Under the pieces are notes generated by a model that did no database searches, was not told the origin of the DNA, and worked only from the letters and a program-made list of their open reading frames with translations. This document shows, in pieces, positions 1-39,899 of a stretch of DNA of 40,957 bases; the stretch's first letter is position 1; each line of letters opens with the position of its first letter. The stretch lies in IMG/VR virus record IMGVR_UViG_2778261455_000003, positions 1 through 40,957 of that record. One strand, 5' to 3'. This DNA is from a virus (taxonomy: Duplodnaviria; Heunggongvirae; Uroviricota; Caudoviricetes). The position numbers and the translations under genes were made by a program.

Positions 1-1284
1 TTACTTCTTCGCCTCTGCAACCACTTTACTACCCACGCCGCGGTTATTGTATTCCCACATGCGGTTGTAGTTAGTGTCATTCAGATTGCGCTGTATTTCG
101 TCGTTATCATCTACGCTGCCGGTATTACCCGCAAACGGACGATTAGAGATCACCGCATCGGCCCACGGTTTAGCCGTGTTAAAACCTTCGTTGATGGCGC
201 TATCACGGATCACCACCTGACCGTTGGTATTGGCATCAACATCCAGCGAGCGGCCCAGTTGCGCCACACCATCACCGAAAGCATTGAAACGGCTGTTTAC
301 GGCGAGGAAACCGTAGTAAATGTTGGACAGCGTAGCCGGTGCAAACACATACGCTTCTTGCTGAGTACGTGAGTTCACCACGCGGAATTCGGTGTTATCG
401 AACACCACTGCGCCGCGACCAGAAACGATATCCACATCCCCTTCAATGTAGCTGTTGGTCACCAGCGTACGCGGCTGACGGTTGGTTTCCAGACGGTTCT
501 GCACACCGCTGTTGGTGACAAAGAAGGTGTTCTGACGACCGAGAATGTTAACGTTGTTAATCTGTACCTGGTCACCATCAGTACGCAGTGCCACCGCCGG
601 ATGGTTACCTGCATCTACGCTATCGCCCAGCGTGTTTTCGATGGTCAGATTTTGCAGTTGCAGGCCATTGTTTTGTGACCAGAAGACCGCAGAGCAGAGA
701 ACACCGATACTGTCGCTGCGTTTGCTCTGGCAGCTATCGTACATATACCACGCTGGTTTACCTGGCATATATTTGCCGCGCGGGTTGACGTCGTGACGCC
801 AGTCGGCAGGGCTCATGCCCCCATCAAGGGAAAGCCCAATCTTCACATCAATCGGTTTTTCACCTGTACCGTACAGAGTAATTCCACCCGGAGCAGCAGG
901 GACATACACCGTTCCCTGATACTCACCAGGCATCACGGCAATATACTGGCGCTTGTTAGTGCGCTTGATAATTGCCGCATCTACCGCCGCCTGAATCGTG
1001 GTATGCGTTACACCTTGAGTACCCGCCGGGCCGACAACAAAGTCAGGTTGCGCAGGCAGGGTAATCGGGGAAGGATTCCACGCTGCAGCACCTGGTGTCA
1101 GGGATGCAAAATAGTGTTGAGCATCGAAATTCTGCGCTTCTTTTGCCGACAGAATCGGGCGAGAAGAGGTACCAGGCGCGGTTTGATCAGAAGGACGTTG
1201 ATCGGGTGGTGTTGAGCTACAGGCGGTCAGCGTCACGCCAAAAGCCAATGCCAGCGCCAGACGGGAAACTGAAAATGTGTTCAC
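1..1284 (-). CDS. ybhC: YbhC-like outer-membrane lipoprotein (pectinesterase-fold acyl-CoA thioesterase family); host gene flanking attB-lambda
   Basis: Complete 427-aa ORF with a lipoprotein-type N-terminus (…LTACSS); recognised from memory as E. coli YbhC, which sits next to attB-lambda. Confidence 0.85.
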   Translation of the reverse strand: MNTFSVSRLALALAFGVTLTACSSTPPDQRPSDQTAPGTSSRPILSAKEAQNFDAQHYFASLTPGAAAWNPSPITLPAQPDFVVGPAGTQGVTHTTIQAAVDAAIIKRTNKRQYIAVMPGEYQGTVYVPAAPGGITLYGTGEKPIDVKIGLSLDGGMSPADWRHDVNPRGKYMPGKPAWYMYDSCQSKRSDSIGVLCSAVFWSQNNGLQLQNLTIENTLGDSVDAGNHPAVALRTDGDQVQINNVNILGRQNTFFVTNSGVQNRLETNRQPRTLVTNSYIEGDVDIVSGRGAVVFDNTEFRVVNSRTQQEAYVFAPATLSNIYYGFLAVNSRFNAFGDGVAQLGRSLDVDANTNGQVVIRDSAINEGFNTAKPWADAVISNRPFAGNTGSVDDNDEIQRNLNDTNYNRMWEYNNRGVGSKVVAEAKK

Positions 1285-1418: not shown

Positions 1419-2489
1419 TTATTTGATTTCAATTTTGTCCCACTCCCTGCCTCTGTCATCACGATATTGTGATGCCATGGTGTCCGACTTATGCCCGAGA
1501 AGATGTTGAGCAAACTTATCGCTTATCTGCTTCTCATAGAGTCTTGCAGACAAACTGCGCAACTCGTGAAAGGTAGGCGGATCCCCTTCGAAGGAAAGAC
1601 CTGATGCTTTTCGTGCGCGCATAAAATACCTTGATACTGTGCCGGATGAAAGCGGTTCACGACGAGTAGATGCAATTATGGTTTCTCCGCCAAGAATCTC
1701 TTTGCATTTATCAAGTGTTTCCTTCATTGATATCCCGAGAGCATCAACATGCAATGTTGTAGGGATGGCAATTTTTACGCCTGTTTTGCTTTGCTCGACA
1801 TAAAGATATCCATCTACGATATCAGACCACTTCATTTCGCATAAATCACCAACTCGCTGCCCGGTAACAACAGCCAGTTCCATTGCAAGTCTGAGCCAAC
1901 ATGGTGATGATTCTGCTGCTTGATAAATTTTCAGGTATTCGTCAGCCGTAAGTCTTGATCTCCTTACCTCTGATTTTGCTGCGCGAGTGGCAGCGACCGG
2001 GTTTGTTGTTATATGGCCTTCAGCTATTGCCTCTCGGAATGCATCGCTCAGTGTTGATCTGATTAACTTGGCTGACGCCGCCTTGCCCTCGTCTATGTAT
2101 CCATTGAGCATTGCCGCAATTTCTTTTGTGGTGATGTCTTCAAGTGGAGCATCAGGCAGACCCCTCCTTATTGCTTTAATTTTGCTCATGTAATTTATGA
2201 GTGTCTTCTGCTTGATTCCTCTGCTGGCGAGGATTTTTTCGTAGCGATCAAGCCATGAATGTAACGTAACAGAATTATCACTGTTGATTCTCGCTGTCAG
2301 AGGCTTGTGCTTGTGTCCTGAAAATAACTCAATGTTGGCCTGTATAGCTTCAGTGATTGCTATGCGTCTGTCTCGGCCTAATCCGAACTCTTTACCCGTC
2401 CTTGGGTCCCTGTAGCAGTAATATCCATTGTTTCTTATATAAAGGTTAGGGGGTAAATCCCGGCGCTCATGACTTCGCCTTCTTCCCAT
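1419..2489 (-). CDS. int: Tyrosine integrase, lambda Int type
   Basis: 356-aa ORF starting MGRRRSHERRDLPPNLYIRNNGYYCYRDPRTGKEF…, recognised as lambda Int; sits directly beside the attL P' arm. Confidence 0.95.
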   Translation of the reverse strand: MGRRRSHERRDLPPNLYIRNNGYYCYRDPRTGKEFGLGRDRRIAITEAIQANIELFSGHKHKPLTARINSDNSVTLHSWLDRYEKILASRGIKQKTLINYMSKIKAIRRGLPDAPLEDITTKEIAAMLNGYIDEGKAASAKLIRSTLSDAFREAIAEGHITTNPVAATRAAKSEVRRSRLTADEYLKIYQAAESSPCWLRLAMELAVVTGQRVGDLCEMKWSDIVDGYLYVEQSKTGVKIAIPTTLHVDALGISMKETLDKCKEILGGETIIASTRREPLSSGTVSRYFMRARKASGLSFEGDPPTFHELRSLSARLYEKQISDKFAQHLLGHKSDTMASQYRDDRGREWDKIEIK

Positions 2490-2685
2490 TTCTGATCCTC
2501 TTCAAAAGGCTACCTGTTACTGGTCGATTTAAGTCAACCTTTACCGCTGACTCGTGGAACAGATACTCTCTTCCATCCTTAACCGGAGGAGGGAATATCC
2601 TGCATTCGCGCACCCATCGACGAACTGTTTCAAGGCTTCTTGGGCGTCGCTGGCGTGCGTTCCACTCCTGAAGTGTCAAGTACAT
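2467..2685 (-). CDS. xis: Excisionase, lambda Xis type
   Basis: 72-aa ORF MYLTLQEWNARQRRPRSLETVRRWVRECRIFPP…; its end overlaps the int start, as in lambda. Confidence 0.9.
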   Translation of the reverse strand: MYLTLQEWNARQRRPRSLETVRRWVRECRIFPPPVKDGREYLFHESAVKVDLNRPVTGSLLKRIRNGKKAKS

Positions 2686-2724
2686 CGCAAAGTCTCCGCA
2701 ATTACACGCAAGAAAAAACCGCCA

Positions 2725-2892
2725 TCAGGCGGCTTGGTGTTCTTTCAGTTCTTCAATTCGAATATTGGTTACGTCTGCATGTGCTATCTGCGCCCACAGC
2801 ATCCAGTGGTCATAGCAGTCGTTGATGTCCTCTGCTTCGATAACCCTGTTGAATGGCTCTCCATTCCATTCACCTGTAACTCGGAAGTGCAT
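2725..2892 (-). CDS. Small hypothetical protein (55 aa) next to xis
   Basis: ATG preceded by GGAGATG; translation MHFRVTGEWNGEPFNRVIEAEDINDCYDHWMLWAQIAHADVTNIRIEELKEHQAA; below the 60-aa cutoff of the ORF track. Confidence 0.35.
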   Translation of the reverse strand: MHFRVTGEWNGEPFNRVIEAEDINDCYDHWMLWAQIAHADVTNIRIEELKEHQAA

Positions 2893-10387: not shown

Positions 10388-11104
10388 TCAAACCAGCCTT
10401 AGTTTTGTCTCAATTGCAACGCCTATAATCTTGCAGTTTCCATTGATTGGCACGAGAGGCCATGCAGGATTAAGTCCCTTGAGGTATTTATTTCCGCCGT
10501 CGATTATCAGCTTCTTGAATGTTGCTTCGTTAGAGTCAGAAAGTTTTGCTATGACCAAGCTGCCGTTGATCGCCTCCCTTCCGGTATCGAAAAGAACGAA
10601 TGTCCCCTCTGGGATGCTTAACCCAACCGGTGCCGTCATTGAATCACCTTCCACTTTAAGCCAGAACGCATTACCTTGAATATGCGCGTCAGACTCAAGC
10701 CAAACATCTATGTCTTTAATGGTGTATGGTTCGCATGCTTCACACCACGAGCCAGCCTGGATACTGCTTAACACCGGATACCTCTTTCCTGCTCTGTATT
10801 CCCCTGCATACCTTACGTTGGCATCGCTCTTAAGGCTTTCTGCCTGTTCTGCAACCTTGGCAGCAATTGACTGGCTAAAATCAGCAATTGAGACTTGCAA
10901 CAAACGTGCAAAACCAGATGCGACCTCAACGTTTAGCGCGTTTCTGCCATTAAGATAATGCCCTACCGCTCCTTGGGTGATACCCAGTTCATCAGCGATT
11001 GAGTATTGGGTTATTCCCAATTCTTTCTTTTTTGACTCATACAAAGCCTTAAGCCGCTTAGCGTCTTCGAGCTGTTCTGTCGTCAGTGATTTTTTATTTT
11101 CCAT
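10388..11104 (-). CDS. cI: CI-type prophage repressor (HTH plus LexA-like S24 domain)
   Basis: 238-aa ORF; N-terminus …LTTEQLEDAKRLKALYESKKKELGITQ…, similar to lambda cI …[27 protein letters not shown]…; C-terminal GDSMTAP / FKKLI motifs. Confidence 0.9.
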   Translation of the reverse strand: MENKKSLTTEQLEDAKRLKALYESKKKELGITQYSIADELGITQGAVGHYLNGRNALNVEVASGFARLLQVSIADFSQSIAAKVAEQAESLKSDANVRYAGEYRAGKRYPVLSSIQAGSWCEACEPYTIKDIDVWLESDAHIQGNAFWLKVEGDSMTAPVGLSIPEGTFVLFDTGREAINGSLVIAKLSDSNEATFKKLIIDGGNKYLKGLNPAWPLVPINGNCKIIGVAIETKLRLV

Positions 11105-26209: not shown

Positions 26210-27504
26210 TGGCATTAAATGAAGGTCAACTGGTCACGTATGCTCTGGATGAAATCATCGAAACCGTCCAGAACCTGACGCCAATGGCGTCCAAAGTGAC
26301 AAAATACACCCCTCCGGCAGAATCCATGCAGCGTTCAAGCAACACCGTGTGGATGCCTGTTGAGCAGGAAGCGCCAACCCAGACTGGCTGGGATTTAACT
26401 GGCAACGCAACCGGGATTCTGGAACTCTCCGTGAAATGCAACATGGGCGATCCGGATAACGATTTCTTCGAGCTTCGTGCAGATGACCTGCGTGATGAGC
26501 GTTCTTACCGTCGTCGCATCCAGGCATCCGCCAAAAAACTGGCGAATAACATTGAGTCAGCAATTGCAAAACAGGCAACTGAAATGGGCTCGCTTGTTGT
26601 TCACGATACCCGCGCAATTGGTCCATCTACTGGCCTGTCTGGCTGGGATTTTGTGTCTGATGCAGAGCGCCTGATGTTCTCCCGTGAGCTAAACCGCGAT
26701 ATGGGCATCAGTTACTTCCTGAACCCTGACGATTACCGCAAAGCAGGCCGCAACCTGGTAGATGGTGACATCTTCGGGCGCGTTACTGAAGACGCGTATC
26801 ACAACGGTACTATTCAGCGTCAGATTGCTGGCTTTGATGAAATTCTTCGCTCACCGAAACTTCCCGCAGTTACCAAGTCAACCGCTACTGGTGTAACTGT
26901 TTCTGGTGCGCAGAAGTTTAAGCCGCAGGCATACACCCTTGATACCGATGGTAACAAAGAGAACGTCGATAACCGTGTTGCAACGGTGACCGTATCCTCC
27001 ACCACCGGATTTAAGCGCGGCGACAAAATCAGCTTCACTGGTGTGAAATTCCTGTCTCAGATGGCGAAGAACGTGCTGACTGATGATGCGACTTTCTCAA
27101 TCACCCGTGTGATCGATGGTACTCACATCGAAATCACGCCGAAGCCGATTGCGCTGGATGACGCATCACTGACAAAAGAAGAGAAGGCTTACGCTAACGT
27201 AAACACCTCTCTTGCTGATACCACTCCGGTAAACGTTCTGAACGTGGCAACAACCACCGCTAACGTGTTCTGGGCTGATGACTCAATCCGCCTGCTGTCT
27301 CAGCCGATCCCGGTAACCCATGAACTGTTTGCTGGCATGAAAACGTCTTCCTTCAGCATTCCTGGTATTGGTGTTAACGGCATCTTCGCAACGCAGGGCG
27401 ATATCAACACTCTGTCTGGTAAGTGCCGTATTGCTGTGTGGTATTCAGCATGTGCTGTACGACCAGAGGCAATTGGTGTTGGTCTGCCTAACCAGACTGC
27501 GTGA
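26209..27504 (+). CDS. Major coat protein, P22 gp5 type
   Basis: 431-aa [32 protein letters not shown]…[13 protein letters not shown]…GVGLPNQTA resembles P22 coat protein. Confidence 0.9.
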
Positions 27505-31719: not shown

Positions 31720-33108
31720 ATGGCTACTTGGCAAGGATCAAATGGCGGATTGTTGGCTGGTATCGGCGGCGTCAACTCAAACGCTCCGAGCGTAAATGAC
31801 ATCGGCAATACGCTTCAGCTTATCAGGCAGAACAATGATATTGAGCGTTCAGGCGCTAACAATGTTGGGCTGACTGCTTTGCAAGGCCTTTCAGGTATTG
31901 CGGGGGTGTTTCAGCAGGAAAAGCAGGCTCAGCGGCAGAAAGAATTTCAGCAGGCATACGCTAATGCTTATGCGTCTGGTGATCGCGGTGCTTTGCGTCA
32001 GTTGGCTACTCAATATCCAGACCAGATTGAATCCGTTCGTAAAGGCATGGGATTCATTGATGAAGACCAGCGCAATTCTATCGGCACCTTAGCGGCTGGC
32101 GCACGCCTTGCGGCCTCGTCTCCAGAAGCAATGCAATCATGGCTGCAAAACAACGCCAATGAGCTGGCGCGCGTCGGTGTTGACCCTAATAACGTTGCTC
32201 AGATGTATCAGCAGAATCCTTCAGGATTTGGTGAGTTTGTTGATCACCTTGGGATGGCTGCTCTTGGTCCGATTGATTACTTCAATGTTCAGGACAAGAT
32301 GGCTGGTCGTGAAATTGACCGAGGCAGGCTGGCAGAGACAATCCGCAGCAATCAGGCTGGAGAGGCACTAACAGCACGAGGTCAGAACATCACGATGCGC
32401 GGTCAGGACTTATCTGCTTCTACTGCGCGACGAGGTCAGGATTTGGCAATGCAGCGAGCGTCAACAAGAGGAATCGCTGGGAATGATGAGCGTACAGTTC
32501 AGTTATCAGATGGCAGAACTGTAACGGTAGGCGGGAAGCTTCACGGCGCTGGGGCTAATGCGTTCTACGAAGGCATCGACAACGAGGGGAATATGGTTCG
32601 CGTTCCTGCCAGTTCAATCGCAGCGCCTGCAACATCGTCTGCATCAGCACAAAACTATGCCATGAAGAAGGATATCGACGCGATCGCAAATGCAGACGCT
32701 TCTGCTCTCGATTTCATGACAGGAATGACAGGCGGTGCAGGTAATCCAGCAATTGGTGCTGATGTTCGCAGCCGATTAACAGGAAAAGAGCAGCGCCAGT
32801 TATATAACTCAGCACAACGTATTCAGGGCAGAATGCAGAATCAGGGTGTGGCGGCAGCAAGGGACATGGGTGCCAGTGGTATTAACACCGTTGCAGAAGC
32901 GAAGATGTATTTTCAGGGGATGCCGCAGGTTGACTATTCAAGCCCGGAGGCTATGCAGCAGTCGATTCGTGAGATTCAGGAATACACCAACAATTACAAC
33001 CAACAATATAACGTTAATGTTGGTAAATCTCAGCGGCAGCAATCTCAACCTGCACAGGTATCACAGCCAGCAGCCAGCAGTAATTTTTCTTCACTATGGG
33101 GTGATTAA
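31720..33108 (+). CDS. Ejection protein, P22 gp20 type
   Basis: 462-aa ORF of the expected position and composition. Confidence 0.65.
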
Positions 33109-35105
33109 TGGCTAAAGCATGGAAAGATGTTATCGCCTCTCCACAGTATCAGGCGTTAGCACCAGAACAAAAAGCGCAGGCTCAGGAGCAATACTTCAAT
33201 GAAGTCGTGGCCCCGCAAGCCGGAGAAAATGCAGAGCAGGCTAAGCAAGCTTTCTATGCTGCCTATCCATTGCCATCTGTGCAGCCAGTGGAGACACAAC
33301 AACCAGTAGCACAGCAACAACCACAGCAAAGTGGATTTATGTCTGATCTTGGCGAAGCAGTAAAAGAGACTGGTCGCGGACTGGTGCAGGCTGGCGTGAA
33401 CGTGGCAAACATACCTGCATCAGTTGCCGATGCTGTAACAAGTGCGGCTGCATGGGCTGGCGGTAAACTCGGCATTGGCGATGGTACATATCAACCAGCG
33501 CCACGAGTAACAACGCAGGGATTAGAGCAGGACTTTGGCCTTCAGCAAGGCGCGCTGACTCCACAAACGACAGAGGGCAGGGTGTTTGCTGAATCATTGC
33601 CTTACCTCACTCCTGCTGGCGTTGAGAGAGCGGCAACACAGGCACCAACACTTGCTGGTCGAATTGCTCAGGGGGCAACTCGCCTTCTCGCAGAAAACGC
33701 AGTTGGATCACTTGCTGCAAACAGTGCGAAAGATGATGCGGAAGCACTCGCCACCGATTTAGGCGTTGGTGTGCTGGCTGGCGGTGCTATTAACGCTGCC
33801 GGACGTGGATTAGGTGCTGCTTATCGTGGCGTTCGTGGTGCTATTGCGCCAGAAGCGCAGCAGGCTATCAGATTTGCAGAGCGTGAAGGAGTTCCTCTGC
33901 ACACCACAGACCTGTTACAGCCCACTTCCCGCGTCGGAAAAATGGCGCAGACTACAGCAGAAAATATCCCCCTGGCTGGCACAAGCGGAATGAGAGCAAC
34001 GCAACAGGAAGCGAGAAGCCAGTTGGTGCAGAGATTTGCTGATAAATTCGGTGAGTATGATCCAGCTGTTGTTATTGACAGCCTTAAAGCGAAAACATCA
34101 GGAATTCGTCGTGCTGCAGGGAACCGTCTTGAGCAGGTTCAGAATGCTATGGCTGGAGTAAACATTCAGCCTGCGCGAGCAATTCAGCAGATTGATACAG
34201 AAATATCTAACCTGCAGAAGCTTGGTAAGGTCGCCGATAACGAGACTATTTCAAAACTTCAGTCCTATCGTGATGAGCTTGTTCGCAATGCTGGCCCTGA
34301 TGGTCCGGTTAATCTGGATTTGAAGCAATTAAGCGATCTGCGCAGCCAGTTCAGAATGGACGTGAAGGGTGAGCGACCAGTGTTACCAAACCGTTCCGAT
34401 GCTGCCATTCAGCGCGTTTACAAGGCAATGACCGACGATATCAATGGTGCCATTGGTCAGAATCTTGGCAACGATACTCTCCGTAAATATCAGCAGGCCA
34501 ATGCCGTCTACGCTGACGAAGCAGCGAAACTAAAGAATACCAGGCTGAAGAATGTTCTCATGAAAGGCGATCTGACGCCGGAAGTTGTCAACAACATGCT
34601 ATTCAGCAAGAACAAATCTGAAATTAAGACGCTGTATAACTCAGTTGGTCGTGTTGGCAGGGCGCAAATGCGCAATGGCATCATTGGAAAGGCGATGGAG
34701 AAATCTGGCGGATCCCCTGACCAGTTCCTTCGGCAGCTTAACATCCTGCAAAACCAGACTGGCATCACATTTAAGGGGCAGGACGCTGCTTATCTGAAGG
34801 GATTAAAAAACTACCTGCAATCCACGCAGCAGGCTGCAAAAGCGGCAGTAACAACACCCACAGGGCAGCAAACTATCCCGTTCATTATTGGGTATGGGAC
34901 GGCAATGAACCCGGCGACAACTGGCGCAGCAGTAAGCTACGGACTTCTTACTCGCGCCTATGAGAGCGAGCCATTCAGAAATGCAATGCTCCGAATGGCA
35001 AACACCCCGCGCGGATCAACAGCGTTTGAGAAAGCCATGCAGCAGGCGCAAAAGGCCATTAACGCCCTGACTCAAGGTGCCAAGTCTGATGCGTTGTCAG
35101 AATAG
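33108..35105 (+). CDS. Ejection protein, P22 gp16 type
   Basis: 665-aa ORF, last of the three-gene ejection block. Confidence 0.65.
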   Translation: MAKAWKDVIASPQYQALAPEQKAQAQEQYFNEVVAPQAGENAEQAKQAFYAAYPLPSVQPVETQQPVAQQQPQQSGFMSDLGEAVKETGRGLVQAGVNVANIPASVADAVTSAAAWAGGKLGIGDGTYQPAPRVTTQGLEQDFGLQQGALTPQTTEGRVFAESLPYLTPAGVERAATQAPTLAGRIAQGATRLLAENAVGSLAANSAKDDAEALATDLGVGVLAGGAINAAGRGLGAAYRGVRGAIAPEAQQAIRFAEREGVPLHTTDLLQPTSRVGKMAQTTAENIPLAGTSGMRATQQEARSQLVQRFADKFGEYDPAVVIDSLKAKTSGIRRAAGNRLEQVQNAMAGVNIQPARAIQQIDTEISNLQKLGKVADNETISKLQSYRDELVRNAGPDGPVNLDLKQLSDLRSQFRMDVKGERPVLPNRSDAAIQRVYKAMTDDINGAIGQNLGNDTLRKYQQANAVYADEAAKLKNTRLKNVLMKGDLTPEVVNNMLFSKNKSEIKTLYNSVGRVGRAQMRNGIIGKAMEKSGGSPDQFLRQLNILQNQTGITFKGQDAAYLKGLKNYLQSTQQAAKAAVTTPTGQQTIPFIIGYGTAMNPATTGAAVSYGLLTRAYESEPFRNAMLRMANTPRGSTAFEKAMQQAQKAINALTQGAKSDALSE

Positions 35106-35174
35106 CTTCGCAAACACCAGGAACGTGCAAAAACCAAATATGTAGAACGCAATATTCAGCATATCTCTTTGCAT
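35097..35174 (-). CDS. Candidate 25-aa hydrophobic peptide
   Basis: Strong RBS ACGGAGGA before the ATG; MQRDMLNIAFYIFGFCTFLVFAKLF; directly downstream of mnt on the same strand; found by manual translation. Confidence 0.25.
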   Translation of the reverse strand: MQRDMLNIAFYIFGFCTFLVFAKLF

Positions 35175-35194
35175 AAATCCTCCGTAACTGATAG

Positions 35195-35455
35195 TTAGCT
35201 GCTGTCTTTTTTATATAGCTCTTTGAGCGTATCAAAGACAATTTTCTTAACCATATCGGATTGTTGTTCTGCCATACGCTCTGCATCGTCAATGTAAACT
35301 GATGCAGAGCTTTGTTTATCCAGTGATTCTTCAATCGCTGCAATTATCTCTGAGTTCAGAGACCTGTTATTCATCTTCGCGCGCTGCTTAATTTTCGCGT
35401 GGAGTTCATGCGGAAGTCTCAAGTGAAACTGCGCCTCGTCGTATTTGCTGTACAT
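35195..35455 (-). CDS. mnt: Mnt-type ribbon-helix-helix repressor
   Basis: 86-aa ORF; …FHLRLPHELHAKIKQRAKMNNRSLNSEIIAAIEESL…DDAERMAEQQSDMVKKIVFDTLKELYKK resembles P22 Mnt. Confidence 0.75.
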   Translation of the reverse strand: MYSKYDEAQFHLRLPHELHAKIKQRAKMNNRSLNSEIIAAIEESLDKQSSASVYIDDAERMAEQQSDMVKKIVFDTLKELYKKDSS

Positions 35456-35576
35456 CCTTGATGCCTCACCAATTGGGTGGAATGGCATCGTAACTTACTG
35501 GATAAATACTCAATAGTACCATTTCGGTATGCAATCACATCATGGTTGCATCATATCATTCGTCTGGAGCAATGAA

Positions 35577-37958
35577 ATGTCAGATATCACCGCAAATGTT
35601 GTGGTAAGCATGCCTTCGCAACTCTTCACTATGGCTCGTTCTTTTAAAGCGGTTGCCAATGGCAAAATTTATATCGGAAAAATTGACACTGACCCGGTAA
35701 ATCCTGAAAACCAGATTCAGGTTTATGTGGAGAACGAAGACGGCTCTCACGTTCCTGTTTCGCAACCAATCATCATTAACGCTGCTGGATATCCGGTATA
35801 TAACGGACAGATTGCAAAATTCGTTACCGTGCAAGGCCATTCTATGGCTGTGTACGATGCGTACGGTGCGCAGCAGTTTTATTTTCCAAATGTGCTGAAG
35901 TATGACCCTGATCAATTCCGTATATACTTTGACAGAGTTATGCATGATATGGCAAAGCCTATAACATATTTTGGGGCCGTACCTGGTGAAGACTGCTCTG
36001 AAGCATTGGAGTCGGCTTTGCATACTGGATTACCATTCTTTTTCCCGGACGGTGAATGGGTTGTAAACAAGAAGATAATATATACAGGAAGTTTCCAGAT
36101 GTTTGGGGTTGGGAATGCGGTTATTAAATCAGACAAGATGTTTGAATTTACTGACGCCAATAATTCAGTTATTGCCGATCTCACCTTCCAGACAATCAGT
36201 GTTCCGTACGTTATTAAGCGTGACACTACTGCATGGGATGCAACAGTATCAGATGTTAAGCAGTCACGAGATGGGTATCAACCAACATCATTGGATACTG
36301 ATATATGGGATGCGCTTCCGCAAATTATTAAAGACCAAGCAATAAATAGAACGATTGAATGTGGAGCAAAATTTTTCTCATCTACATCTTCAGGAGTAGA
36401 CAATGTCAACATTCTGCGAGTTTCCGGGCTTGGTGTTGCATTTGAAATTTATGGTTCTAAAAATTCAGTTGCTAGTGATTGCAGCATAACCGGAAACAGT
36501 AGAGATGCTATAACATTTATAAACGATACTGTCTTCAACGGAATTTCATTGCCGCGAGGCACAGGAAATAGGGCGGTAAATAACAACGTAACCTACGCTT
36601 CGCAGTGCGGTATATCATGGTGGGGGCAGGATGAATTTTTATGTGATGGCAATAATACACAATATTGTGGCGAATCAGGAATAAAAATTTATCAATACGA
36701 TACCAACCATCCAGTATCAATTGTCAGCAAAGGAAGTCGCATAGTTAACAACTATTCAGCATACAATTACTACGATGGCATTGATGCTCAGGTATGGTAT
36801 CCGCCAGCAACAGATCCGGGTGTGGTAGCTAGAAACGTTATAAAAAACAATATATCAATAGGTAGCAGACATACAGGAATAACTTCTAACGGCGGTCAGG
36901 AATTAGTTTCAGGGAACCATTGCCGAAGTACTGGTGGGTCTGGTATTAGAATTGTCTCAAACAGAAGTGTTATTGAAACGAATATTGCAACTGATTGTGC
37001 CAATGCATCATCACAGCACTCATTCCAGATTTTTGGTATGAGCATCCAAGGTGATGGTATTATTTCTATAGGTAACAGGGTTAATAATTCATCATCTCCT
37101 GCGAGCACCTATGATTATTTGCATACTGGAATAAATGGAAACGATCCAGCATCCGGGGATCCCGGGCTTGATTTTGGTAATACCTGTAGCGCAGGACCGG
37201 ATGTGATGTTTATTTCTAATAATATCACATCGTCAATGTCTGAGTTTCTTGTTGGAGCTTCCTCTAAAACAAATACATTTAACGCTTCGTTAATAGCCAG
37301 AAAAAACGGCTATGGCGTTGATCTTTGCGGTGGTAACGGGGAGGGTTCGGTAAACATACGTGGAGATGCTACATTTGGGGCGAGTATTAATTTTCAGCCT
37401 GTTTCCGAAGATCCTTCAACAACCACCCCTAAAGGTGGTCTGAGATACAGCTTTTCAGCAAAAAAACTTATCATCTCAACTGAGAGAGAAGCAAAAGTCG
37501 AAATTGGCGAGACTGCCGGAGTATATCCAACAGCGGACAATAGCATCGGACTTGGCCTGCCATCAAATCGATGGACAGCAGTTTATGCTGCAAATGGAAC
37601 AATTGTCACATCAGATGGGAGACTAAAATGTAATGAAAGAAGTTTGAGTGAAGCAGAATTAGCAACAGCTAACGCATTAAAGAATATGATTAAAGCATAT
37701 AAGTTTACCGAATCCGTTGAAGGTAAAGGTGAAAATGCAAGGATTCATTTTGGCGTTATCGCTCAAGAGGTTATTAAGGCATTTAACGCAAATGGTCTTG
37801 ATGCTTTTAAATATGGAATAGTCTGCTATGACGAGTGGGATTCTCAATCAGATCTAAAAGATTCCTCAGGAAATATAATCACTCCAGAAATAAAAGGCGG
37901 TAATAGATACGGCATTAGATATGATGAATTATTGTGCTTCATCATTGCTGCACTATAA
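35577..37958 (+). CDS. Tailspike protein: P22-type head-binding N-terminus, divergent central domain, C-terminal auto-chaperone-like segment
   Basis: N-terminus [47 protein letters not shown]… matches the P22 tailspike head-binding domain; the rest is unrelated to P22, Ser/Asn/Gly-rich, and ends with a segment (…[23 protein letters not shown]…) resembling intramolecular chaperone domains. Confidence 0.85.
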
Positions 37959-37984
37959 AAAAAGGGGCATTAGCCCCTTTTTTT
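37957..37984. terminator. Bidirectional intrinsic terminator between convergent tailspike and acyltransferase genes
   Basis: AAAAAAAGGGGC-ATTA-GCCCCTTTTTTT: a perfect GC stem flanked by an A-run and a T-run. Confidence 0.6.
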
Positions 37985-39899
37985 ATTCGAATATTTCCTT
38001 TCTGTATTTATCTACTATGTAAGTAGATCCTGCCTCTGTAAGATGCCCCCAATCAACAGCAGTTATACCTTTTGGTCCTTCTGATGTTCTTGTAAGACAA
38101 CCACCATCTCCACACATAGCCGAATATGGTGAAACGTAATCCACTCCAAGCGTTGGAATATTCTTTTTGAGAAAATCATCCCATTCCTTAATCTGAGGCT
38201 TTAATCCATCCTTCATGTAGCGTGGAGGTTCATTATGATTATTTGTATAGTACAAGACTATTTGTTTTATAAGGCTTTCATCCCACTCAGGCACAGGACC
38301 AACAACAATGATTTTTGATTCAGGAGAAGCAAACTTAATCTTTTTAATTGTTTCATTAAGAGATAAGATGGCCTGATTCTTATCAAATATAGCATTCTGA
38401 CCTTCAACCATCCATGATATTATAATTTTCTTCGGCTTATACATTTCAACGAAATTTAATCTCTCATTATTTGCATCTGTGAGAGTTTTTAGTGTATCTG
38501 TCTTTCTGTTGTCAAAATAGAAAGGAGGCCCATTCCCATCGGTCATCTGGCTAATGAAAACATCTTTGTAATACTTGTCGCTAACATTTTTCAATCCGCT
38601 ATATAAAGCGGCAGCGTATGAATCACCCCATATAAATATTTGATTATCGCTCTTAGCTACGCAACCACTACTTACTGCAACCTCTGGTGTTACAGAGTGG
38701 CATTTATTGCTTCTCATTAAATTTGGGTAATCGAAAAAATCATAAACGTTAATTATTGAGCTATATTCCTTGGCTATTTCGTTAATCTTTCTATCTTGTA
38801 TTCCATTATGCTTATATACGTACAGTCCAGCCTGGCCAACTATGAAAAGAATGATGGCGGAAACAGCAGCATTATAACCCCTATGCTTTCCAAACCTTAC
38901 TTTACGCTCAACTAAGTAAAACGATAGGAACGCTAAAATCATTGAGGCGAAAATTATAAAAATACCGTTCAGTAAGTCTATATCGCTTGCCGTTTTCAAC
39001 TTGTAGAAAACTATTAAAGGCCAGTGCCACAGGTAAAGCGGGTAGCTAATTAATCCAATGAATACAAATAACTTATTAGACAGCAGACGCCCAACACAAC
39101 TATCATTGCCATAACACACTATCATAGCAGTACCAGCAACAGGAACCATTGCAATGTATCCCGGGAAATTCATTTTGCTGTTTATAAAAAACATTGAAAA
39201 AACAATCAAAATAAAACCAATTACCGGCACGATAATATTAAGCGTGGATTTTCTATTACCCCCATCTCTGAATGTTAGAGATATGGCAGCCCCTGTCATT
39301 AATTCCCATAATCTCGTTAAAGGAGAGTAATAGCTTACACTTTGGTTATGTATTGTTTCATATATACAATATAGCAGGCTTGCTATAAATAATAACATTA
39401 TGTAAATTCTTGCAGAATTCTTTCTTTTGACAATAAGAAGTATTAATGCAGGCCATATTATATAGAATTGCTCCTCAACACCCAAAGACCATAGGTGTAG
39501 CAATGGTTTCAATTCAGACGCTGTATCAAAGTATCCTGACTCAAGAATATATCCTATATTAGCAACGAAGAATGCGCCTGTAAAAACGTTCTTTCCTAGC
39601 GAGGCGTATTCACTCTGAAGAAGGAAGAACCAACCATAAATTAATGAAGCTGCCAGAACAGCAATCAGAGATGGGAATATTCTTAGCGCTCTTCTTTTAT
39701 AAAATTCAGTGTAACTGAATTTATTAGTAAGTGCTTCACTATAAATAATGTTTGTTATAAGGTATCCAGATATAACAAAGAATATATCAACACCAACGAA
39801 TCCACCTGGTAGAGTGCTTGGGAAAATGTGATAAACAATTACTGACAATACAGCAATTGCTCGTAGCCCATCGATATCAGGTCTGTATTTTATAGACAT
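37983..39899 (-). CDS. Membrane acyltransferase (AT3 domain plus C-terminal SGNH-like domain); probable O-antigen acetyltransferase
   Basis: 638-aa ORF with about ten hydrophobic segments in the N-terminal two-thirds and a soluble C-terminal domain; markedly AT-rich compared with neighbouring phage genes. Confidence 0.8.
   Translation of the reverse strand: MSIKYRPDIDGLRAIAVLSVIVYHIFPSTLPGGFVGVDIFFVISGYLITNIIYSEALTNKFSYTEFYKRRALRIFPSLIAVLAASLIYGWFFLLQSEYASLGKNVFTGAFFVANIGYILESGYFDTASELKPLLHLWSLGVEEQFYIIWPALILLIVKRKNSARIYIMLLFIASLLYCIYETIHNQSVSYYSPLTRLWELMTGAAISLTFRDGGNRKSTLNIIVPVIGFILIVFSMFFINSKMNFPGYIAMVPVAGTAMIVCYGNDSCVGRLLSNKLFVFIGLISYPLYLWHWPLIVFYKLKTASDIDLLNGIFIIFASMILAFLSFYLVERKVRFGKHRGYNAAVSAIILFIVGQAGLYVYKHNGIQDRKINEIAKEYSSIINVYDFFDYPNLMRSNKCHSVTPEVAVSSGCVAKSDNQIFIWGDSYAAALYSGLKNVSDKYYKDVFISQMTDGNGPPFYFDNRKTDTLKTLTDANNERLNFVEMYKPKKIIISWMVEGQNAIFDKNQAILSLNETIKKIKFASPESKIIVVGPVPEWDESLIKQIVLYYTNNHNEPPRYMKDGLKPQIKEWDDFLKKNIPTLGVDYVSPYSAMCGDGGCLTRTSEGPKGITAVDWGHLTEAGSTYIVDKYRKEIFE

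Follow-up and report, generated by a model that had tools for sequence, protein, structure and literature searches.

A Lone mnt Gene in a P22-like Escherichia coli Prophage, with a Candidate Operator of a Third Specificity Class and a Possible Small Membrane Peptide Downstream

We have analyzed a 40,957 nt window of viral DNA (the whole of IMG/VR record IMGVR_UViG_2778261455_000003), which is an integrated P22-like (Lederbergvirus) prophage of Escherichia coli, concentrating on the region between its gene 16 and its tailspike gene, where a homolog of the P22 repressor gene mnt is found. We conclude, at a probability of about 0.6, that this region is a reduced ant moron, in which a self-contained and functional mnt cassette is retained and an antirepressor is missing. 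Mnt would bind a candidate operator, O1, and so set transcription of mnt itself, of a downstream reading frame for a 25-residue hydrophobic peptide, and rightward toward the tailspike gene. Homology, domain content, synteny, operator position, covariation between the dyad and the recognition residues of Mnt, and purifying selection carry this conclusion, and from them we infer binding, promoter use, cotranscription, and translation. The features discussed are listed in Table 1.

The Protein Has Both Domains of Mnt

The initial annotation of this region, made from the sequence without database searches, described a clear Mnt homolog lying between the ejection genes and the tailspike. Both statements hold. 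The N terminus matches Pfam Arc (PF03869, 8.3e-15), an Arc/MetJ-type ribbon-helix-helix DNA-binding domain, and the C terminus matches Repressor_Mnt (PF11423, 3.3e-14), a coiled-coil tetramerization domain. The solved structures agree: 1MNT, the P22 Mnt N-terminal domain, is matched at 5e-19 over residues 6-79, and 1QEY, the tetramerization domain, at 1.7e-8 over residues 56-84. The protein is 49% identical to P22 Mnt, and its gene sits between gene 16 and the tailspike gene with a direction opposite to that of the late operon, as in P22. On these matches it is a true Mnt, with both domains present.

The start of mnt is the second ATG, which gives 86 residues and has GGTGAGG (35464..35470) as a Shine-Dalgarno sequence 8 nt upstream; PGAP gives the identical 86-residue reading frame in E. 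coli G3/10. The 97-residue start at 35488 that appears in Sf101 records was rejected, because in Buttiauxella an in-frame stop follows that ATG and in Gally it is out of frame. RefSeq phage records (NC_027398, NC_002371, NC_014900, and others, that of P22 included) call Mnt a "partition protein ATPase"; this is the label of phrog_795 and a propagated misannotation.

A Dyad at the Position of the P22 Operator Varies with the Recognition Residues

In the annotated features of P22, Omnt (AGGTCCACCGTGGACCT) abuts the -35 element TTGAGA of Pmnt, and Pant lies on the opposite strand. When six regions upstream of mnt were aligned with MAFFT, the window sequence CATACCGAAATGGTACT (35531..35515, read on the mnt strand) and the Gally sequence AGAGACCACTGTGGTCT both fell in the Omnt columns. 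Invariant across the six regions are a CC-N5-GG core, the ATTG of the -35 element, and the TA..AT of the -10 element, and O1 immediately precedes that ATTG. The promoter next to it in the window is the column-for-column counterpart of annotated P22 Pmnt (TTGAGA-17-TATCAT); the TTG of its -35 and the TA..AT of its -10 do not vary in the alignment, and most relatives have a 17 nt spacer. From this promoter the mnt transcript is predicted to start near 35480, with a leader of about 25 nt.

The window has two copies of the pattern TACC-N5-GGTA where 0.2 would be expected; the second is at 27219 within the coat gene. Across about 170 loci the arms of O1 are kept while the center varies (GAAAT, TAAAC, AAAAT, GTTAA), and conserved arms around a variable center are the shape of variation expected for an operator.

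A comparison of Mnt classes over about 250 loci points the same way. Where the DNA-binding strand reads DDPHFNFRMP (P22, epsilon34), the operator is GGTCCAC-N-GTGGACC, the P22 sequence given above, and arc and ant adjoin mnt in all 16 loci; 12 typical loci have a 90 nt spacing and this dyad, and the four MPLEV variants have a 398 nt spacing and no dyad within the proximal 95 nt. Where it reads DDPQFNLRLP (Gally, ST160), the operator is AGACCACNGTGGTCT (GACCAC-N-GTGGTC) and arc and ant are never present; because ST160 belongs here, this class covers the published lone-mnt type. The window belongs to a class with the strand DEAQFHLRL and the dyad RTACC-N5-GGTAC, again never with arc or ant. JEP4, VSe13, Buttiauxella, and Serratia, with Mnt proteins 61-65% identical overall, retain both the DEAQFHLRL strand and the arms of the dyad, and vary in its five central bases. 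At the positions of His6, Asn8, and Arg10 of P22 Mnt, the window protein has Gln, His, and Arg. The mutational work of Knight and Sauer is said to have identified His6 and Asn8, together with Arg2 and Arg10, as the determinants of P22 Mnt operator specificity.

O1 is thus a candidate site: a dyad just upstream of the -35 element of the gene's own promoter, covarying with the recognition residues. Judged by this covariation, the window Mnt is a third operator-specificity class. The dyad at 35515..35531 is a better operator candidate than the palindrome proposed in the initial annotation, CCAATTGG, which is probably not the operator and compared with which the dyad lies 47 nt further upstream of mnt.

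The Leader Palindrome Is Part of a Separate Inverted Repeat

The initial annotation had offered CCAATTGG, a perfect palindrome at 35469..35476, as a candidate operator. The palindrome is indeed there, and falls at about +5..+12 if the mRNA starts as predicted for the Pmnt homolog; it is its role as an operator that does not stand up. The window holds 98 palindromes of 8 bp, and because 24% of 121 nt windows contain one, the presence of CCAATTGG is no more than chance would give. Nor is it constant. Among 47 distinct upstream sequences the commonest allele is CCAACTGG (32 loci; 78 in a larger sample), others read CATTAG, CACCTG, or CATTTG at this position, and the segment from CACC to GGTG is 4, 5, or 6 nt long.

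A larger inverted repeat encloses both the palindrome and the mnt Shine-Dalgarno; its outer arms read GATGCC-N18-GGCATC, and inside them lies a CACC/GGTG pair. In a fuller version of the proposal, the dyad centered on CCAATTGG (TCACCAATTGGGTGGA, within this repeat) is the Mnt operator, and autorepression occurs at +1..+25, over the Shine-Dalgarno. The larger repeat is real and conserved; it is found once in the window against 0.02 expected, and it overlaps the predicted -10 element (TACGATGCC), the start site, and the ribosome-binding site (GGTGAGGCATC). Its inner arms, CACC-N5-GGTG, also share an ACC-N5-GGT pattern with O1. However, the window class has the same outer arms, GATGCC/GGCATC, as the Gally class, where the recognition residues and O1 are different, and nothing comparable is present at the corresponding position in P22, which argues that the repeat is not an Mnt site. 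Moreover, a Buttiauxella member retains O1 but has inner arms that read GTCC/GGAC, and a variable center with a spacing of 4 to 6 nt suits a loop rather than an operator. We therefore regard an operator centered on CCAATTGG as very unlikely.

Under our preferred reading, with Mnt at O1, CCAATTGG would be the variable loop and inner stem of a leader inverted repeat that covers the Shine-Dalgarno. The repeat grows to about 10 bp in Buttiauxella and Serratia relatives. RNA folding gives it z-scores of -1.9 (mnt strand) and -2.3 (plus strand), and the shuffle z-scores are modest, ranging from -1.0 to -4.1. RNAalifold finds that only the invariant 6 bp outer stem is shared; within the repeat there are no double compensatory changes, three one-sided changes compatible with G-U pairing, and one break. 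The repeat could be a leader hairpin that masks the Shine-Dalgarno in transcripts begun upstream, an element of the late mRNA, or the site of another protein. A scan of a viral collection for ACGATGCC-N14-22-GGCATC was too loose to help, mnt loci making up 2 of its 120 matches.

mnt without arc and ant Is Common and under Purifying Selection

The absence of arc and ant, already stated in the initial annotation, is confirmed over the whole window: tblastn at E<0.1 found no match to P22 Arc, Ant, SieA, or orf59a, nor to JEP4 Rha/KilA or the VSe13 antirepressor. Just 121 nt (35456..35576) separate mnt from the tailspike gene, and the complete immI arrangement, with arc, ant, and sar RNA downstream of Pant, is not present. 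What is found is the mnt-only ant moron of the ST64T/L type, in which mnt is present, arc and ant are absent, and the tailspike is immediately divergent. The orphan status noted in the initial annotation is a known and common one. The arrangement has been published for ST64T, ST104, and phage L (PMC2629481, PMC8022706), and two of the three Mnt classes sampled show it as a rule, arc and ant adjoining mnt in none of about 235 loci (about 170 of the window class and about 66 of the Gally class).

The locus is widespread. There are 227 relatives in IMG/VR, and a 541 nt query spanning the peptide reading frame, mnt, and the control region matches 421 of 5426 complete E. coli genomes; at least 80% of the query is covered in 141 of these, and some of the matches reach the gene-16/peptide end only. 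The 121 nt spacing between mnt and the tailspike gene is found in 114 of 142 loci with an identical Mnt N terminus.

The phage L paper raises the possibility that its lone mnt is a relic (PMC8022706), and some points favor seeing the window gene, too, as a functionless leftover of a degraded immI region. In the window arc, ant, and sar are gone and the Pant homolog has decayed, and one Citrobacter sp. copy (locus L012, 2925..3010) looks as if it is decaying, with a premature stop at codon 5 (MYSK, then stop) and a mutated operator arm, ATACCGAAATAGTAC. Against this, mnt is under purifying selection and so is no decaying remnant: among 59 intact alleles there are 42 synonymous and 39 nonsynonymous site changes (omega about 0.22), and the median pairwise NG86 dN/dS is 0.16. 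More than 140 loci have the reading frame intact, at 95-100% conservation, and the locus is present in hundreds of E. coli genomes; the operator arms, the -35 and -10 elements, and the Shine-Dalgarno are conserved across genera, and the cassette recombines as an intact unit. We give a relic hardly any credence. Among P22-like prophages of E. coli and Shigella a lone mnt represents the majority state; this, together with the purifying selection on the gene, argues against the idea of a decaying remnant.

Several relatives differ from the window between mnt and the tailspike gene. In about 14 of the 142 window-class loci, a gene for a 179-180-residue HNH/AP2-type homing endonuclease lies between the mnt control region and the tailspike (for example at 2330..2869 of locus L009 and 2327..2869 of L017, in locus coordinates), which corresponds to a point just to the right of window position 35590. 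Loci with such a gene are those in which mnt and the tailspike gene are spaced more widely. The insertion point falls directly behind the opening few codons of the old tailspike start, of which a remnant (MSDIT...) is left, and the tailspike then has a new start; this one junction is used by two unrelated endonuclease alleles. These insertions, just outside the cassette, suggest that mnt, its control region, and the first 15 nt or so of the tailspike gene move as one block. In four loci (L005, L006, L007, and L029) a block of about 55 nt replaces the spacer of the window and is near-identical to the sequence just upstream of P22 gene 9 (1059..1120 of the P22 locus L004). Most relatives carry this block, which contains the hairpin CCGTAGCCATGCTGCGG, and loci that have it look like precise deletions of arc-ant or like noninsertions.

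The Possible Targets of Mnt

By the mechanism that we favor, an Mnt tetramer would bind CATACCGAAATGGTACT at the P22 Omnt position, immediately upstream of the -35 element of the TTGAGT-15-TACGAT promoter, and would there set its own level. It would also set that of the 25-codon gene, assuming cotranscription, because no terminator found by our scan follows mnt. Finally, Mnt at O1 would block late-independent rightward transcription into the tailspike gene from the decayed Pant position.

Observations on a lone-mnt relative bear on the last of these steps. In macrophages the prophage Gally shows a 7-50-fold increase in mnt and tailspike transcripts, and repression is seen for several late-operon genes that serve the head or DNA injection (10.1101/2022.10.28.514194). 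A rise of mnt and tailspike together with a fall of late genes fits promoters in the mnt-tailspike region that are independent of late transcription. Control of such tailspike transcription by Mnt is plausible by analogy with P22, and a target of Mnt beyond autoregulation is what we infer.

Several observations weigh against this extended role, and against parts of the favored mechanism. The spacer of the Pmnt homolog is 15 nt here, which is poor. The Pant positional homolog (ATGGCA-17-AATACT, 8 of 12 matches) is the best plus-strand site in the intergenic region, with a predicted start near 35517, inside O1; its score of 6.8 is nevertheless background, given 338 sites scoring at least 5 in 20 kb, and its -10 element is not kept in the spacer version of the JEP4/VSe13 type. 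A strong Pant overlapped by Omnt, as in immI, is thus missing, and the intergenic promoter scan found no convincing promoter toward the tailspike. There is a single operator copy per locus, and no further regulatory copy was found in the window or in any fetched locus, so any cis target beyond mnt itself is putative. With the tailspike-facing promoters this weak, autoregulation is the sole well-founded cis role of Mnt. Finally, the top promoter score of the region (9.8) belongs to a speculative extended -10 site, TGaTATGAT, aimed at mnt from upstream of O1, and if this site is used, O1 would act as a roadblock and not as an activator site.

The TGaTATGAT site is confined to the spacer version of the window, IME10, and Sf101 type. 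That version also carries a direct repeat, ATCACATCAT / ATCATATCAT (35533..35559, starts 17 nt apart), which gives the extended -10 site on the minus strand. A recurrent TACCATATTGGTA in L220-type loci was considered as a second operator and rejected, because it lies within a gp16 gene.

In another explanation Mnt works mainly in trans as an immunity factor. By shutting the antirepressor promoter of incoming relatives with the same operator, it would protect the resident S24-type repressor, and the operator beside mnt would serve autoregulation alone. A P22 prophage makes Mnt that represses the ant gene carried in by superinfecting genomes. The autocleavable CI/C2-type repressor of the window could be an antirepressor target, mnt is under purifying selection despite having no cis target gene, and in relatives such as JEP4 and VSe13 this moron also houses genes for Rha, KilA, or antirepressors. 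On the other hand, arc or ant lies beside a cognate operator in none of the window-class and Gally-class loci, no fetched locus has a second regulatory copy of the operator, and we identified no phage with an antirepressor under a window-class operator. In JEP4, moreover, the Rha/KilA operon has its own divergent C2-like repressor and no O1 site. Although immunity in trans is compatible with our preferred reading, we consider it unlikely as the main function of Mnt.

The JEP4 operon belongs to a second immunity-like unit behind mnt (locus L093, 1634..4294), in which a C2-like repressor gene is divergent from an Arc-like 57-residue reading frame, followed by Rha, KilA, and a small reading frame, JEP4_18. 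No Mnt-type operator was found ahead of it.

A Conserved 25-Codon Reading Frame Follows mnt

Directly downstream of mnt, on the same strand, the initial annotation had noticed a strong ribosome-binding site and a 25-codon hydrophobic reading frame that could encode a small membrane peptide. We confirm the site and the reading frame, and the possibility of a membrane peptide is strengthened. The reading frame (MQRDMLNIAFYIFGFCTFLVFAKLF) begins 20 nt past the mnt stop codon, GGAGG (35179..35183) sits 4 nt upstream of it, and the frame shares its final 9 nt, stop codon included, with the 3' end of gene 16. The peptide has a polar N terminus, an 18-residue hydrophobic core, and a C-terminal KLF; its mean Kyte-Doolittle value is 2.05 over residues 5-22, as for one hydrophobic helix.

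The pattern of substitution is of the coding type. Among 50 DNA variants from 150 fetched loci, 49 have an intact reading frame, and the remaining one starts with CTG. Outside the gene-16 overlap there are 19 synonymous and 36 nonsynonymous changes over 12 and 57 sites, respectively; this corresponds, in crude column counts on related sequences, to an omega of 0.40 (binomial P=0.0017), against 1.22 for the plus-strand frame in the same register.

That plus-strand frame (35106..35198) is the one that would be translated if ribosomes read through the TAG of gene 16. The gene-16 frame stays open for about 31 codons past the TAG, in 48 of 50 variants; read-through was rejected as unlikely on its omega of about 1.2, a neutral pattern.

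The reading frame is conserved in IME10, Sf6, Gally, and VSe13. It follows mnt in loci of the window type and a lipoprotein gene in Gally and VSe13, and it stands alone in Sf6, which has no mnt, and in the E. coli prophage L377. Sf101, which has the same mnt and a different gene-16 type, is without it. By this distribution, the reading frame follows the gene-16 allele and is no partner of Mnt. It would also be the sole content of the supposedly empty moron of Sf6, which Villafane et al. describe as absent. GGAGG, for its part, lies in sequence specific to the junction, homology to Sf6 ending at 35175 and homology to Sf101 starting at 35187; it is present in almost every mnt-linked variant, one of which reads AGAGG. 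The terminator scan found nothing on the minus strand between mnt and the reading frame or just after the frame, so the latter is probably the second gene of an mnt operon in the window.

No annotation of the reading frame was found in the IME10, Sf6, Gally, or VSe13 records or in the fetched PGAP-annotated E. coli prophages. An exact look-up of six peptide variants in a collection of 15 billion proteins returned nothing, the peptide has no match in Pfam, PHROGs, or NCBIfam, and its sequence does not occur in the searchable literature.

The reading frame might instead be untranslated, and conserved through its linkage to the highly conserved gene-16 3' end or because the late mRNA has a nucleic-acid element there. 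The sequences compared are closely related, so that the substitution counts are not independent events; the frame is short, and by our estimate an open frame of 25 codons is about 30% likely; its last 9 nt are constrained by gene 16; and the Shine-Dalgarno is weak in the Sf6-type and Gally-type contexts. It is on record with no gene caller, protein family, or paper among those searched. Several findings nevertheless speak for translation. Enrichment of synonymous changes is seen on the minus-strand frame only, the intact variants include that of VSe13, in which the DNA is about 80% identical, most replacements in the hydrophobic core are conservative, and the well-spaced GGAGG recurs at the junction in nearly all mnt-linked variants. 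An untranslated frame is doubtful on balance, if still a serious alternative. It is credible from these patterns that the frame is a separate, unannotated small membrane-protein gene of the gene-16 module.

A conserved 25-codon membrane-peptide gene at the end of gene 16, even in Sf6, would be a candidate for a function expressed in the lysogen. One speculation, which we think rather improbable in so specific a form, is that an unrecognized, prophage-expressed membrane peptide is locked to one gp16 allele. It might act as a minimal superinfection exclusion against gp16-mediated DNA delivery, or as a toxin-like peptide silenced by the antisense late mRNA, with a dose set by Mnt through cotranscription in the window type.

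The Prophage and the Flanking Genes

The inventory of the prophage includes an integrase, an S24/HTH repressor, cII, structural genes, the tailspike, and an AT3-SGNH acyltransferase. Its nearest phage records are IME10 (96% over 34900..35700) and Sf101, and the nearest bacterial record is E. coli G3/10 (98.9% over 35060..35600). The gp16-like gene is the final gene of the late operon ahead of the moron; between it and the tailspike gene, the minus strand holds the 25-codon frame, the 20 nt spacer, and mnt. The tailspike has a head-binding domain of the P22 type and, toward its C terminus, an endosialidase-type stalk and a Peptidase_S74 chaperone domain. Adjoining its gene is that of the AT3-SGNH acyltransferase (37983..39899, minus strand), likely an O-antigen-modifying conversion gene.

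Table 1. Features of the Window That Bear on the mnt Region
Feature	Coordinates	Strand	Basis
Integrase gene	1419..2489		
S24/HTH repressor gene, autocleavable CI/C2-type	10388..11104		
gp16-like DNA ejection protein gene	33108..35105	+	Reading frame; homologous records: DNA transfer / P22-gp16 family protein
25-codon hydrophobic reading frame (putative peptide gene)	35097..35174	-	GGAGG at 35179..35183, conservation, omega
mnt, 86-residue Mnt-family repressor	35195..35455	-	Pfam, PDB matches, PGAP, omega about 0.2
Inverted repeat GATGCC-N18-GGCATC, inner CACC/GGTG pair	35460..35489	.	1 in window against 0.02 expected
Degenerate positional homolog of P22 Pant, ATGGCA-17-AATACT	35482..35510	+	8/12 matches, weak call
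Homolog of P22 Pmnt, -35 TTGAGT (35513..35508), 15 nt spacer, -10 TACGAT (35492..35487)	35487..35513	-	Alignment
Candidate Mnt operator O1, centered at 35523	35515..35531	.	Aligned to P22 Omnt
Extended -10 promoter-like site TGaTATGAT, -10 at 35555..35550	35550..35578	-	Score 9.8, speculative
Tailspike gene	35577..37958	+	Pfam Head_binding 2.2e-67; C-terminal Peptidase_S74 chaperone domain 2e-10

Comparison with Known Systems

In size and composition the 25-residue peptide is like the type I toxins and small membrane proteins of the Ibs, ShoB, TisB, and Hok class. It differs from them in having no family match, and no dedicated antisense RNA gene was identified, none having been sought; it resembles them in its polar N terminus, its 18-residue hydrophobic core, and a fully complementary transcript, that of the late mRNA. 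The comparison with P22 SieA is one of position. The reading frame occupies a sieA-like slot, directly after gene 16 and on the strand opposite to the late genes, and is predicted to insert into a membrane. Unlike SieA (164 residues) it has a single hydrophobic segment, and neither SieA nor orf59a has sequence similarity in the window by tblastn.

With P22 immI (mnt-arc-ant-sar) the window shares a two-domain Mnt, its position between gene 16 and the tailspike, its orientation against the late genes, and a dyad at the Omnt position beside a Pmnt-type promoter. It lacks arc, ant, sar RNA, the Arc operator, and a strong Pant; its recognition residues are Gln, His, and Arg where P22 has His6, Asn8, and Arg10; its dyad is RTACC-N5-GGTAY rather than GGTCCAC-N-GTGGACC; and it has the extra GATGCC...GGCATC repeat over the leader.

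The closest counterparts are the mnt-only morons of Salmonella phages ST64T, ST104, L, and ST160 and of the E. coli prophage Gally. These differ from the window in their DDPQFNLRLP class and GACCAC-N-GTGGTC operator, and in their accessory genes, which are orf62/orf64 in the Salmonella phages and lipoprotein genes in Gally. In all of them, as in the window, mnt faces the tailspike gene across about 120-150 nt with no arc or ant, and they have the GATGCC...GGCATC repeat as well. The lone-mnt arrangement has been described before, and what is new is a third specificity class within this known kind. The three natural pairs of Mnt recognition residues and operators provide a ready specificity series for a classic ribbon-helix-helix model protein.

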